Virus record (IMG/VR): IMGVR_UViG_3300029815_000015
Span: 1-58,350 of that record
Direction: 5' to 3' (one strand)
DNA from: a virus
DNA: 58,350 nucleotides
A program made the position numbers and the translations under genes. The notes under the pieces were generated by a model. The model had not been told where the DNA came from, did no database searches, and was given only the letters and a program-made list of their open reading frames with translations. Positions within the stretch are counted from its first letter, which is position 1; every line of letters begins with the position of its first letter. This document shows positions 3,001 through 41,478 of the stretch, piece after piece.

Positions 3001-3359
3001 GGAAAGAACTCATTAAATATTTGAAGAAGTACGGAATAGCAACAAATAATCCAATATTGTTTGCTAACGGTGGATTTCCGGAAGATGGTTGGTTCCGCGC
3101 AAGCCACGGAGAAATGATGGGTAAATTCGACAATGGTAAGTCGGTTGTTGCAAATAACAAACAGATTACTACCGGTATTTCCGAAGCGGTTGCACCGGCT
3201 GTTTATGCGGCTACAAAGGCGGCAATCAAAGAGGAATTATCGAATGCAAATGTCGGTGGCGGTGATGTTTACCTTGACGGAACAAAAGTAACAACGGCAA
3301 TTATGAACAACGCAAAGAAAATCTCCAAGAATAAAGGAATTTCTTGGAACATGGCTTAA
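1..3359 (+). CDS. Tail tape measure protein, C-terminal part (continues the ORF starting at 57198 across the contig junction; about 1476 aa in total)
   Basis: Frame 3 is open from nt 3. Nt 1-81 equal 58270-58350 and are in phase with ATG 57198. Very long Ala/Gly/Lys/Ser-rich protein between tail chaperone genes and tail tip genes. Confidence 0.85.
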   Translation, partial: ANQFKKAGYNSAEEYAGSFRKRFGKLQKQLTGYKVDTNTGDATNTFSHNLGLDLTEVMNYNAAIAQITNSAGMLGETSIATSKALTMLSADWASLANLDTADVMQNFQSGLVGQSRALYKYGIDITSAGLAQTAMNHGVTESIKNLSQQSKMQLRVLTMLEQSKVAYSDLARTINQPANQLRMLQAGFKKLSLTIGSLFMPIVQKVYPYINAMVMVLQDFAQWVAKLAGIKLGDTDGSRKTPEAPDYSDAADDTNKVAKNMDKTAKKTKKAADNLQGFDIVNKLQDNSDSDSGDTDPSGGNANIDLSKDISDALKNYEKIWDNAFKSNQNKAVELYKKMKKAILDAWKGGDFTSLGSALANWINKGIKNIPWTKIKKTTKKIAKSLATFLNGFVKDLDWTKLGENFSEGLNTWFETSYTFFKTFDWLKFGQSIKEGITAAINNFDGDLAGKSLGAKLRGMIQFAFGVMVDFPYKNLGKKIGDYINGFLEEMGEVRKNTGLTGWQELGKTISDGITGILDTIDTALSTVDWWEVGKAIGDFLSEIEWGKTLLKVGKIIVKGLFNALKVAISAFIRDPLGIAFKLSTVLIGVFAYKKLKILWESLKTVFSDGISNSLISAKINSKGLTDKFSGLGSKMGRAMGVALVAAYGWWENSITAGGDAKGNVERYASGTDDKSMLLKEVVQMMDKFGYGSNTNTVDRLVGRLNKKLESGEISEKTIRKALDKDYKTMTDKQSVQSAADFLDLLGESKGNVATKIDKGKKELNDYKPIITQTTKYSKAVDTLNKKMKKLGISSSESKSIQDKLKKALEDGEITWEDYKKITDKNYKSTDALKKKIDSLKPKAVKIKAETSGGDDVDSLQGKVDSVNSKTVTITAGIKGVDIKTFGDLSIAMKNMKNRDINVNISANLRKAWYKSVQKELYSRTFSINANTKVIKASGKEVEKATKSQTGKKYNGEKFKKLMNAVGTTQDQWGRVVIPGAIDYNGSSKKAKAAQQSKKWKELIKYLKKYGIATNNPILFANGGFPEDGWFRASHGEMMGKFDNGKSVVANNKQITTGISEAVAPAVYAATKAAIKEELSNANVGGGDVYLDGTKVTTAIMNNAKKISKNKGISWNMA

Positions 3360-3363
3360 AGAA

Positions 3364-3392
3364 AGAGGCTCATGCGAATGAGTCTCTTTTTT
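3364..3392 (+). terminator. Intrinsic terminator after TMP
   Basis: 10-bp stem AGAGGCTCAT/ATGAGTCTCT (one G-U), GCGA loop, then T6. Confidence 0.7.
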
Positions 3393-3417
3393 ATGTGAAA
3401 AAGTTAGGAGGTGTCAT

Positions 3418-3813
3418 ATGGCATTTACGTTGAAGTTTGGTTGGACTAAGGACAGTTTAGAAGATATGCCAACACCAAAATATGAGGGATGGAAAATCTC
3501 ACGAGAAAAAGTGTGGAACGCAAAAGCAGGAAGAAGTTCAAAAGCACTTTACAACGGAAAGATAGTTGCAAAGAAAGTAACGCTTGACATGGCATTTCCA
3601 GCAAATTTGACGCCAAGCGAAATCAAGAAGTTGATGAAGTACGCAGACCCGGATGATTTATCAAACCGGTACGGCTACATACAGTTCACCAATGAAAAAG
3701 GAGAAAAAGAAACAAAGCAGTTTTATTTTGGAAACCCTAGTTTTGACGCAATGACTTTTTTTAATGGAAAGTTTATTTGGTCTAGCATACAGATACAGGC
3801 GGTGGAGCGATGA
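3418..3813 (+). CDS. Small tail protein in the distal-tail-protein position (131 aa)
   Basis: SD AGGAGGTG upstream of ATG. First gene after TMP. Much shorter than typical Dit, so function is by position only. Confidence 0.45.
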   Translation: MAFTLKFGWTKDSLEDMPTPKYEGWKISREKVWNAKAGRSSKALYNGKIVAKKVTLDMAFPANLTPSEIKKLMKYADPDDLSNRYGYIQFTNEKGEKETKQFYFGNPSFDAMTFFNGKFIWSSIQIQAVER

Positions 3814-20905: not shown

Positions 20906-21931
20906 ATGAATGAACAATTAAATATTTTTTCTGTATTTAGAAGAGATTTTAGAATAAATAACAAAATTCGTTTAATTGAATTATTTGCCGGAGTAGGTTC
21001 GCAAGCTATGGCACTTAAAAGATTAGGAGCGGACTTTGAACATTACAAGGTTGTTGAATTTGATAAGTACGCAATCAAAAGTTACAACGCAATTCACGGA
21101 ACAGATTTTGAACCTACAGACATAACTCAAATAAGCGGTTCTGATTTGGAAATAGTTGACACTGAAACATTTACTTACTTACTTACTTACTCTTTTCCTT
21201 GCCAAGATTTATCGGTTGCCGGTAAGCAAAAGGGAATGGTTAAAGGTAGCGGCACAAGGTCCGGGTTGCTATGGGAAGTAGAACGATTGCTGAATGAGGT
21301 TGGCAATTTACCACAAGTGTTACTTATGGAGAATGTTCCACAGGTTCACGGAAAGAAGAACATGGAAGATTTCCAAAAATGGATAGCATTCCTTGAAAGC
21401 AAAGGTTATTCAAATTATTGGCAGGACTTAAACGCAAAGAATTATGGTGTTGCTCAAAACAGAAATCGTTGCTTTATGGTTAGCATTTTAGGAAATTATA
21501 AATTTACATTTCCAAATCCTATTGAACTGCAAAAAGTGATGAAAGATTATCTGGAAGATGAAGTTGACGAGAAGTATTACATCAATAACGAAAAAGCACA
21601 GAAATTGATACAGAAACTAATTGACAACGGAACACTTCAAAATACAATCACTAGAGCAGAGCAGAGCAGAGCAGAGCAGAGCAGACTTGCGTTGACGGAA
21701 CAATTAACGAGCCAAGAGAAAAGCGAGTCGGAAACTGCATTAAGGCAAGATATGACGCAGGAATCTCAAACTTGCGGTCAGATGGAAACTGTATTGTTGA
21801 AAGGAATGGTTGATAAACAATTAGAACCACAAGCACAAAAAATTGACGTATCATCAACGCTTATGTCAAGAGATTATAAAGGGTTAAATAACTATGGAAC
21901 AAATGGAGTGATTGAATGGAAAGAAAAATAG
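20906..21931 (+). CDS. DNA (cytosine-5) methyltransferase, N-terminal/alpha part (motifs I-VIII plus TRD module)
   Basis: ELFAGVGS (I), FPCQDLS (IV), ENVPQV (VI), QNRNRCFMVS (VIII), then IDVSSTLMSRDYKGLNNYGTNGVIE. Ends at TAG 21929-21931. Confidence 0.85.
   Translation: MNEQLNIFSVFRRDFRINNKIRLIELFAGVGSQAMALKRLGADFEHYKVVEFDKYAIKSYNAIHGTDFEPTDITQISGSDLEIVDTETFTYLLTYSFPCQDLSVAGKQKGMVKGSGTRSGLLWEVERLLNEVGNLPQVLLMENVPQVHGKKNMEDFQKWIAFLESKGYSNYWQDLNAKNYGVAQNRNRCFMVSILGNYKFTFPNPIELQKVMKDYLEDEVDEKYYINNEKAQKLIQKLIDNGTLQNTITRAEQSRAEQSRLALTEQLTSQEKSESETALRQDMTQESQTCGQMETVLLKGMVDKQLEPQAQKIDVSSTLMSRDYKGLNNYGTNGVIEWKEK
21653..21685 (+). repeat. Pentanucleotide tract (AGAGC)x6.6 inside the methyltransferase gene
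   Basis: Read directly: six perfect AGAGC units plus AGA. Encodes RAEQS repeats in the current frame. Confidence 0.95.
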
Positions 21932-22446
21932 GGAACATATTTGGCTTTTCTGGCGGTAATTACGCAGGTAATGTGTATGACAAATGCCATTTAAGTCCTA
22001 CTCTAAGCACTATGCAGTGGGGGTGTAAACAACCGATGATTGTAGAAGCAAATTCAATCCGTATGGTTAGAACGGAAGAAGGGAAGGCATTGAGAAAACA
22101 ATATGAAAAGCCTAACCAGTTAGGATTTATGGATAATGGGACCGGTCAGCATCAATCAAACACAGTATACGATGAAAAAGCACTATGCCCTAATATTACT
22201 ACTGTTAATGGTGGTGGAACACAACAAATAAAAGTTGCGACACAATATCGAATTAGAAAGTTGACACCAAAAGAATGTTGGAGATTGATGGACTTTTCGG
22301 ATGAAGATTTTGAAAAGGCAGAAAAAGTTAATTCAAATACGCAGTTATATAAACAAGCCGGAAATTCCATTGTTGTAAATGTTCTTGTTGCAATTTTAGG
22401 ACAGTTATTGCAAGGAAAAGAAGATTTATATAAGGAAATTATTTAA
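21916..22446 (+). CDS. DNA (cytosine-5) methyltransferase, C-terminal/beta part (two TRD modules plus motifs IX-X)
   Basis: VYDKCHLSPTLSTMQWG.., VYDEKALCPNITTVNGGG.., YRIRKLTPKECWRLMDF (IX), GNSIVVNVL (X). ATG 21916 lies 8 nt after GGAG and overlaps the alpha ORF by 16 nt. Confidence 0.8.
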   Translation: MERKIGNIFGFSGGNYAGNVYDKCHLSPTLSTMQWGCKQPMIVEANSIRMVRTEEGKALRKQYEKPNQLGFMDNGTGQHQSNTVYDEKALCPNITTVNGGGTQQIKVATQYRIRKLTPKECWRLMDFSDEDFEKAEKVNSNTQLYKQAGNSIVVNVLVAILGQLLQGKEDLYKEII

Positions 22447-39298: not shown

Positions 39299-39317
39299 TT
39301 TGATTCCAGAAGAAAAG

Positions 39318-39342
39318 GGCGGCTTTTAAGCCGTCTTTTTTT
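39318..39342 (+). terminator. Intrinsic terminator
   Basis: Stem GGCGGC/GCCGTC (one G-U) followed by T7. Confidence 0.65.
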
Positions 39343-39346
39343 GTGT

Positions 39347-39478
39347 TTTTGTTATCGGTTTGTTATCAATTTGTAATCATGTTGTATACAGTTCTGTTAT
39401 CGCTTTGTAATCAATCTGTTTCCAAAGTGTAGACCAGATAAGATAAGGTTAGATAAGGTTAGAGAAGATAAGTATATA
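39347..39478. repeat. Iteron arrays: five TTGT(T/A)ATC boxes, then four GATAAG boxes in the opposite sense
   Basis: TTGTTATC/TTGTAATC at about 39348, 39359, 39370, 39393 and 39404. GATAAG x4 with a tandem GATAAGGTTA x2 at 39437-39475. Confidence 0.7.
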
Positions 39479-39562
39479 TATAGTCGGGCAGATTCCCCGA
39501 CGCCGTACCAGGATTTATAAAAAACGGCTCGAACTCGACAAATAAATATTATAAATTTATTA

Positions 39563-41398: not shown

Positions 41399-41478
41399 CG
41401 GCGATAGCATAATGGATAATGCGTTGTGTAGAATCCCACTATACACAAAGAATCGTGGTTCAAATCCACGATTGCCGA
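41399..41478 (+). ncRNA. Non-canonical tRNA-like element 1 (80 nt)
   Basis: 7-bp acceptor CGGCGAT/ATTGCCG. D-arm GCAT-AATGGATA-ATGC. T-arm CGTGG-TTCAAAT-CCACG. The anticodon arm is 7 bp with an 11-nt loop (or 7 bp with a 7-nt AAUCCCA loop in a shifted register). Confidence 0.5.

Follow-up and report, generated by a model that had tools for sequence, protein, structure and literature searches.

A T-free repeat as a candidate reading-frame selector of recognition modules in a split phage C5-cytosine DNA methyltransferase

In this study, we analyzed a 58,350-nucleotide (nt) human-gut phage contig (IMGVR_UViG_3300029815_000015, positions 1 to 58,350; this whole stretch is called the window below), and found that its gene for a C5-cytosine DNA methyltransferase (C5-MTase) is split in two and carries a perfect AGAGC repeat ahead of two recognition modules encoded in different reading frames. 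We propose that this gene is a phage contingency locus within a split, multi-module C5-MTase, and give this full functional model a probability of roughly 70%. We have high confidence in the narrower claim that a hypermutable selector lies over a conserved and selected two-frame module layout. A broader claim is only somewhat favoured: that the T-free repeat is a three-position selector for two overprinted modules or none, and that such selectors, re-created or maintained with at least 10 different repeat units, form a widespread class in gut Firmicutes phages and prophages, by which these would stochastically vary the 5-methylcytosine (5mC) specificity of themselves and of their lysogens.

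The features of the locus are as follows, with reading frames given by position modulo 3 (mod 3) and lengths in amino acids (aa).

20906-21931, plus strand: alpha open reading frame (ORF), 341 aa, frame mod 3 = 2, holding the AGAGC tract
20906-21652, plus strand: constant part of alpha, with the C5-MTase catalytic core and the start of the variable region (frame mod 3 = 2; PF00145)
21653-21685, plus strand: (AGAGC)x6.6 hypermutable tract and putative frame selector (Tandem Repeats Finder, 100% matches, score 66)
21686-21813, plus strand: dual-coding stretch, module A (mod 3 = 1) over a hydrophilic linker (mod 3 = 2)
21693-21695, plus strand: third-frame stop TGA (mod 3 = 0), giving a truncated alpha that ends in ...SRADLR at unit counts of 4, 7, 10 and so on
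21839-21931, plus strand: recognition module B, KIDVSSTLMSRDYKGLNNYGTNGVIEWKEK (frame mod 3 = 2, now joined to the core; stop TAG 21929-21931)
21905-21918, plus strand: translation start of beta (GGAG 21905-21908, 7-nt spacer, ATG 21916-21918), inside the NGVIEW codons of module B
21916-22446, plus strand: beta subunit, 176 aa, frame mod 3 = 1 (PF00145 positions 220-322, E = 5e-13, corresponding to motifs IX-X)

The alpha ORF matches the C5-cytosine methylase family PF00145 over positions 2-257 of 324 (E = 5e-51), which corresponds to motifs I-VIII. The motifs that mark the large domain of C5-MTases are readable in it: motif I as LFAGVGS, motif IV with its PCQ as FPCQDLS, motif VI with its ENV as MENV, and motif VIII as QNRNRCF. 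Motifs IX and X were found on the separate beta ORF.

The original prediction placed a tract of 6.6 AGAGC units exactly between the catalytic motifs and the target-recognition region. The repeat finder recovered this tract at 21653-21685 without a mismatch; tracts like it are expected about 1e-11 times by chance in the window. Its position between motifs I-VIII and the recognition region was also borne out, although it sits about 58 codons past motif VIII, where the variable region begins, and not right behind the motif. The tract is thus both intragenic and perfect, and its unit length is no multiple of three, as is typical of simple sequence repeat (SSR) contingency loci. Furthermore, it is T-free and therefore open in all three frames.

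Three-frame translation downstream of the tract gave the two predicted open frames, each ending in a module of the target recognition domain (TRD) type, with the same peptides and stops. Frame mod 3 = 1 reads ...QTCVDGTINEPREKRVGNCIKARYDAGISNLRSDGNCIVERNG and ends at TGA 21811-21813, followed by TAA; the module A peptide in this frame is CVDGTINEPREKRVGNCIKARYDAGISNLRSDGNCIVERNG. Frame mod 3 = 2, which is joined to the catalytic core in the window, reads LALTEQLTSQEKSESETALRQDMTQESQTCGQMETVLLKGMVDKQLEPQAQKIDVSSTLMSRDYKGLNNYGTNGVIEWKEK and ends at TAG 21929-21931. Here the DNA of module A is read as the linker LALTEQLTSQEKSESETALRQDMTQESQTCGQMETVLLKGM, which runs into module B with its TRD-type pattern T-L-x-[AS]-R-D-Y-K-G...N-G-V-I-E. 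Modules A and B and two modules in beta share the pattern x-[TC]-[LI]-x-[AS]...G..[VI][VI]E. The locus therefore has what is expected of a multispecific phage C5-MTase, namely phage-encoded tandem TRD modules between motifs VIII and IX.

Two further candidates within the gene were set aside. An internal ATG at 21807 overlaps the stop of module A (ATGGTTGA) and might allow a restart into module B; it is not kept in other lineages. A perfect (TTAC)x5.2 repeat at 21171-21191, just ahead of motif IV, was considered as a second switch. It does not vary in length in any relative, some relatives have it broken by a synonymous change, and the peptide FTYLLTY seems to account for it.

A protein search returned more than 100 alpha homologues at 70-100% identity, and 110 related loci were taken from viral and bacterial genome collections. 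Three alpha forms are encoded and all of them are present in natural genomes. Proteins 95-100% identical to the 341-aa ORF vary in the number of repeat-encoded residues and fall into three C-terminal classes. B-type ends occur in P0001 (6 units), P0004-7 (3 units) and P0008 (about 12 units). A-type ends, in proteins of 294-300 aa, occur in P0020 and P0022 (5 units) and in P0028-33 (2 units). Truncated ends (...SRADLR) occur in P0021 (4 units), P0023 (7), P0025 (10) and P0075 (16). These alleles match the predicted arithmetic, by which one unit less brings module A into frame, the present count module B, and one unit more the TGA at 21693.

At the DNA level, the tract ranges from 2.6 to more than 16 units within the AGAGC clade. 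The 300-aa A form is encoded with 5.6 units (L068/P0020; P0020 is present on 10 contigs), and truncated forms of about 259-264 aa are encoded with 7.6 units (L008) and 4.6 units (P0021/L144). Scripted counts among non-redundant loci, with the query chosen so that no state is favoured, gave 22 loci in state A, 17 in state B and 10 truncated; 4 of the 22 A calls (L054, L082, L092, L043) rest on A7/G7 homopolymers and are doubtful as true repeats.

We also compared genomes that are otherwise identical and found that they differ in copy number. L144 (4.6 units) and L002 (6.6 units) align over 6790 nt with 0 mismatches and 1 gap, and between L008 (7.6 units) and L002 there are 2 substitutions in 5747 nt; the three phages come from different samples. 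A further pair from a relative clade, L045 and L047, agrees throughout 5687 nt except for 4 nt of a (GA)n tract. This near-identity indicates that tract length changes much faster than point substitutions accrue. The length heterogeneity by which the original prediction was to be checked is therefore seen between genomes, with three tract lengths in genomes 0-2 substitutions apart over 5.7-6.8 kb.

These pairs also bear on the alternative that the frame is chosen mainly during transcription or translation. Through slippage of transcription or frameshifting of the ribosome on the tract, each genome would make a mix of alpha-A, alpha-B and truncated alpha, and DNA length would only bias this mix. 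In a mod gene, a frameshift at an SSR is reported to be suppressed (bioRxiv 10.64898/2026.04.01.715767), and long tracts of more than 16 units or (GA)18 exist. However, the whole-unit variation documented between isogenic genomes lies in the DNA and is sufficient for the layout, and we regard this alternative as very unlikely. A known slippery heptamer or stimulatory structure was not noticed, although no search was aimed at either.

Seven contigs (L012, L013, L073, L122, L126, L129 and L131) start or stop within the AGAGC tract, and 4 of these 7 end with exactly 53 nt of repeat, which fits a 55-mer assembly limit. Tracts of at least 11 units, or tracts of mixed length, thus break assemblies, so that the intact locus is probably under-represented. 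The breaks inside the tract are the only hint, and an indirect one, of frequent and reversible switching within clonal populations.

A separate rearrangement was observed in L067 (about 3244-3510), L119 and the protein P0009. Here, an indel within module A joins its first half to the linker of the B frame (…NCIKANMTHEFQTCGRMETVLLKGMVDK…IDVSSTL…). In this allele module A is destroyed and the frame relation is altered, and it is a naturally rewired switch.

To determine how far the layout is conserved, we analyzed 52 loci in which modules A and B are both detectable and B lies one frame ahead; two loci with another A-B offset were set aside. In 52/52 of them, the frame of module B is open across all of module A. 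Motifs IX and X are in the frame of module A in most loci. As a null model for the +1 frame, synonymous codons of module A were resampled with the peptide and the codon usage of the gene kept. The chance of a stop-free +1 frame was 0.004-0.16 per lineage, and the frame was open in 15/15 lineages (product 2e-21), which are mostly at 55-70% nucleotide identity to each other within the module A segment. Relatives with an in-frame module A but without a repeat served as the negative control, and they have 1-5 stops in the +1 frame. When module A sequences were grouped at 85% nucleotide identity, the +1 frame was open across A in 18/18 clusters with the SSR vs 0/11 clusters without it (Fisher's exact p = 2.9e-8). 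The second frame is thus open beyond chance and its openness is conserved, as is expected of overprinting.

Furthermore, pairwise differences at the three codon positions were 0.335/0.25/0.487 for module A and 0.398/0.373/0.619 for module B, each in its own frame. This excess at third positions indicates that both modules are under purifying selection at the protein level. By these comparative measures, selection maintains the two modules as well as the openness of the linker frame.

Relatives also show where the two modules belong. In single-ORF relatives (P0047, L046, L054), module A comes first among the modules, in frame and continuous with motifs IX and X, which bears out the frame-1 peptide as a conserved module of the TRD type. 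Module B resembles the first modules of relatives without A (L060, L076, L079). L021, L089 and L077 keep the layout but have another TRD-type module at the end of the +1 frame. P0047 is a single ORF of 448 aa with 2.6 units, in which the core, a module A′, two more modules and motifs IX-X all lie in one frame. Its layout suggests that an ancestral single-frame enzyme received a frame-offset module B that carried the beta start.

This evidence can be set against a plain ON/OFF switch, in which only state A gives a useful enzyme, and module B with its open frame would be a relic, perhaps a pseudo-TRD that recombination left in place. Such a switch would suit the common frame of A and motifs IX/X, the use of A by single-ORF relatives and the +1 frame of P0047/L133, which reaches no module. 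It also has a precedent in Mycoplasma CpG C5-MTases, which are switched ON/OFF by mid-gene poly(G)/poly(GA) tracts (PMC9465063). A relic frame, however, would gather stops, and the split between repeat-bearing and repeat-less clusters speaks against this, as do the purifying selection on module B in its own frame and the replacement of the +1 module by other TRD types in L021, L089 and L077. We therefore consider a plain ON/OFF switch, and with it the relic status of module B, unlikely on these comparisons.

A decaying pseudogene was also considered, with three independent lesions, namely the repeat and the two stops that close A and B. The gene is indeed interrupted compared with the single-ORF P0047. 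On the other hand, the identical 341-aa protein was found on 22 contigs from independent samples, both modules are under selection, and beta keeps its start and is widely retained as a separate gene. The claim that would have supported decay, namely that this genome alone is damaged, did not hold: at least 18 lineages, whose repeat units differ, have the three-frame layout. The comparative data thus appear to exclude decay, and we judge it extremely improbable.

The contingency reading is further supported by the repeats that occupy the same site in relatives. This site follows the conserved beginning of the variable region and precedes the first recognition module, and at least 10 repeat types, with units of 1, 2, 4, 5 or 8 nt, are found there in relatives down to about 46% identity. 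These include AGAGC/CAGAG, ACAGACGG (3.5-7.5 units), GACA/ACAG/CAGA (7.8-12.8 units), GAAC x12, AACG x10.8, AACGG, AACAG, (GA)16-18 and G8-G9. Every unit is T-free and of a length that is not a multiple of three. Since the units are T-free, no stop codon is possible in any frame of the tract, as a three-frame selector requires.

Three observations were made on relatives of the gene. The cultured isolate Diplocloster hominis strain CSJ-3 (L110, about 3400-3440) has a prophage methyltransferase at 73% identity with G9 at the equivalent site, which is now truncated. The Streptococcus phages Javan179 and Javan129 (L136/L137; prophages of S. equi and S. dysgalactiae) encode a split alpha/beta C5-MTase at 46-49% identity, whose alpha ends in an A-type module and has no repeat; they are useful only as evidence that the split layout is viable. 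In L140, a close relative, a reverse-transcriptase gene (1956-2996; PF00078 RVT_1) lies directly upstream of the methyltransferase, where the helicase otherwise sits, and it may belong to a retron, a group II intron or a diversity-generating element.

The beta subunit holds two TRD-type modules, SPTLSTMQWGCKQPMIVE and CPNITTVNGGGTQQIKV, followed by motif IX (RKLTPKECWRLMDF) and motif X (QAGNSIVVNV). For its last module there is an alignment with the TRD region of M.MpeI (PDB 4dkj), which is the only lead to a recognised sequence and not enough to assign specificity. Beta shares the frame of module A, with several stops in between (21811-21915). The segment aaTGGAGTgatTGAATGg encodes the N-G-V-I-E-W end of module B and at the same time holds the GGAG, the 7-nt spacer and the ATG of beta. 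This GGAG-N7-ATG arrangement is kept across lineages whose beta N-termini differ (MERKIGNIFG, MSKVKYAIG, MEEILGSIY, MRKTYLGTLY, MDVKKLGNIS, MGKEIEIIGK, MEVIGSIYTEV). Beta homologues are nearly always called as separate genes, and their sizes of 114-308 aa indicate that the number of modules varies. The division follows that of M.AquI, with motifs I-VIII and the proximal variable region in alpha, and the distal variable region and motifs IX-X in beta, which has its own start. Programmed +1/-1 ribosomal frameshifting that would join A to B, or B to beta, was set aside, since beta has its own conserved Shine-Dalgarno sequence and ATG and variable N-termini.

The position of the beta start raises the question of translational coupling, by which the B frame would mainly bring ribosomes to the beta start and the repeat would tune the level of beta or of the holoenzyme, not specificity. 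In most lineages, the alpha-B ORF overlaps beta by 7-25 nt up to its stop, and the alpha-A stop lies about 100 nt upstream of the beta ATG, as coupling would predict. However, beta has its own conserved GGAG at 7-nt spacing, and module B is of the TRD type, similar to the first modules of L060, L076 and L079, and is conserved at the protein level. We regard coupling as the main role of the B frame as improbable; it is also compatible with a TRD role at the same time.

In the contingency model, slippage on the T-free AGAGC tract changes its length in steps of 5 nt and rotates the frame behind the core through three states. In state A (2, 5, 8 and further units), the encoded alpha consists of the core and module A, about 300 aa. 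In state B (3, 6, 9 and further units, as in the window), it consists of the core, a linker of about 50 aa from the alternative frame, and module B, 341 aa in all. In state 0 (4, 7, 10 and further units), the encoded alpha is cut a few codons past the tract and carries no module. Beta, with two modules and motifs IX and X, has its own ribosome-binding site and ATG within the end of module B. By analogy with M.AquI, alpha and beta would assemble; by analogy with the multispecific enzymes of Bacillus phages, each module would have its own target. The methylated sites would then be those of the beta modules, joined by those of A in state A, by those of B in state B and by no others in state 0. 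Since beta has its own recognition modules, the truncated state may be one of reduced specificity rather than full OFF. More speculatively, this would be a form of bet-hedging by a phage or prophage population across varied hosts, with protection from the hosts' Type II restriction enzymes on one side and exposure to methylation-dependent restriction on the other. The original prediction of a slipped-strand locus that changes specificity thus stands in all parts testable by sequence (length variants, conserved module A, recurrent layout, open frame); the change of specificity itself, with both alpha forms made, paired with beta and conferring different methylation, is what we infer from them.

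Several points weigh against this model. Length variation is documented between genomes only, and the counts of the three states are close to the expectation of neutral slippage. Some relatives (P0047/L133) have lost module B, and the repeat can act only as an ON/OFF switch there; the +1 frame of P0047 is open over A′ but leads to no module. The linker shows stop avoidance only, with no independent amino-acid constraint found. The alpha forms are predicted from sequence and their assembly with beta by analogy, and the AlphaFold2 model of alpha-B (63-sequence alignment) gave no structural support, with a mean predicted local distance difference test (pLDDT) score of 38.7 that was low even in the catalytic core. 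In addition, about 50 unstructured residues in alpha-B might impair its function, and the states could be less distinct if transcription or translation itself slips on the tract.

ON/OFF switching by repeats is familiar from Type III mod genes, and it also occurs in some genes of Type I and Type IIG and in a few of Type II. Like the known phase-variable methyltransferases (Type III mod, Type I hsdM/hsdS, Type IIG cj0031, and those of Mycoplasma and M. hominis), the gene studied here has an intragenic non-triplet repeat whose slippage shifts the methyltransferase frame, and its copy number varies between otherwise identical genomes. However, the known systems switch ON/OFF, except for hsdS, where truncation or recombination alters specificity, whereas here two of the three frames each encode a module, overprinted on one another. 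Ours is also an orphan phage C5-MTase and does not belong to a cellular restriction-modification system. The repeat alternative in hsdS lies between a full-length and a truncated S subunit in one frame; the phage gene, which encodes a C5 enzyme of the monomer type, takes its other module from another frame of DNA that is in part shared. What it has in common with Type I hsdS genes that carry a repeat between the two TRDs (e.g. NgoAV, cited in PMC10305163) is that the repeat decides which recognition domains enter the protein, and would thereby alter specificity and not just expression. A (TA)n tract has also been described in the TRD region of M. hominis DCM8/DAM3 (PMC10305163). A 2026 review gives two modes only, ON/OFF switching and hsdS-based change of specificity (PMC13076061).

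The C5-MTases of the Bacillus phages SPR, phi3T, H2 and phiBssHII are established as multispecific enzymes with tandem TRDs (references in PMC8936443). M.SPRI, M.Phi3TI, M.H2I and M.phiBssHII resemble our gene as phage orphan enzymes with short tandem TRDs between motifs VIII and IX, and a role in self-protection against host restriction is presumed there as here. Their TRDs lie in one polypeptide and one frame and are expressed together, and these enzymes are not known to have a repeat tract, frame offset or two-subunit split. In the window, by contrast, A and B differ in frame and beta is a separate ORF. The locus works like the SPR/phi3T family, yet it is not a standard member.

Two systems come close in their use of frames. 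M.EcoHK31I uses overlapping reading frames, and the tetranucleotide repeats of H. influenzae lic1A/lic2A give three states with more than one productive frame. In lic1A/lic2A, the productive frames differ in their start codon and so in the level of product, whereas here they differ in the attached protein module. The naturally split M.AquI and M.EcoHK31I are not known to have a hypermutable tract or alternative alpha C-termini; the likeness is one of layout, with the alpha/beta split in the variable region in M.AquI (PMC3404938). M.AquI is a natural enzyme of this kind (alpha with I-VIII and the proximal variable region, beta with the distal variable region and IX-X), and fragments of monomeric C5-MTases complement each other provided that they are split within the proximal variable region (PMC3404938). 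Taken together, the locus combines traits of phase-variable, multispecific phage and split M.AquI-type methyltransferases. Full-text literature searches found no published frame-encoded choice of TRDs and no such switch in phage C5-MTases; subscription journals were mostly outside their coverage, so this absence is not proof.

If the model is true, the choice of a module by reading frame, through overprinted coding sequence, would be a third route to phase-varying methylation, and phages, not just cellular pathogens, would keep contingency loci in their anti-restriction equipment. It would also matter for the host range of phages, for the epigenetic heterogeneity that prophages drive in gut Lachnospiraceae and Clostridia, and for how metagenomic 5mC signals are read. 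The locus is, in addition, a clean natural case of selection holding an alternative frame open. Since the n=5, 6 and 7 alleles are already natural and the enzyme is small, the model is directly testable. Such systems are likely under-annotated, because gene callers list these genes as fragments or pseudogenes.

The methyltransferase gene comes after a DnaB-type helicase gene in the phage replication module. No restriction gene lies beside this orphan phage C5-MTase. The contig L001 (ERZ920356; source reads ERR1190800) is identical to the window. A megablast search of the gene against 50,697 GenBank phage records gave no match; the nearest GenBank record by tblastn is an uncultured virus at 58% identity, with no cultured reference phage at hand. 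The named hosts of related loci are Lachnospiraceae, Eubacterium, Roseburia and other Clostridia metagenome-assembled genomes.

Two observations were made elsewhere in the window. The intergenic region 39299-39480 contains a terminator-like hairpin, followed by about 6 copies of the 11-nt unit TTTGTTATCNN (39348-39413) and by AGATAAGGTT x2.7 (39441-39467). This array looks like iterons or a regulator-binding array, and is possibly an origin, packaging or regulatory site. The window also carries a single phage-borne tRNA-Ser gene (anticodon aga) at 41399-41478.

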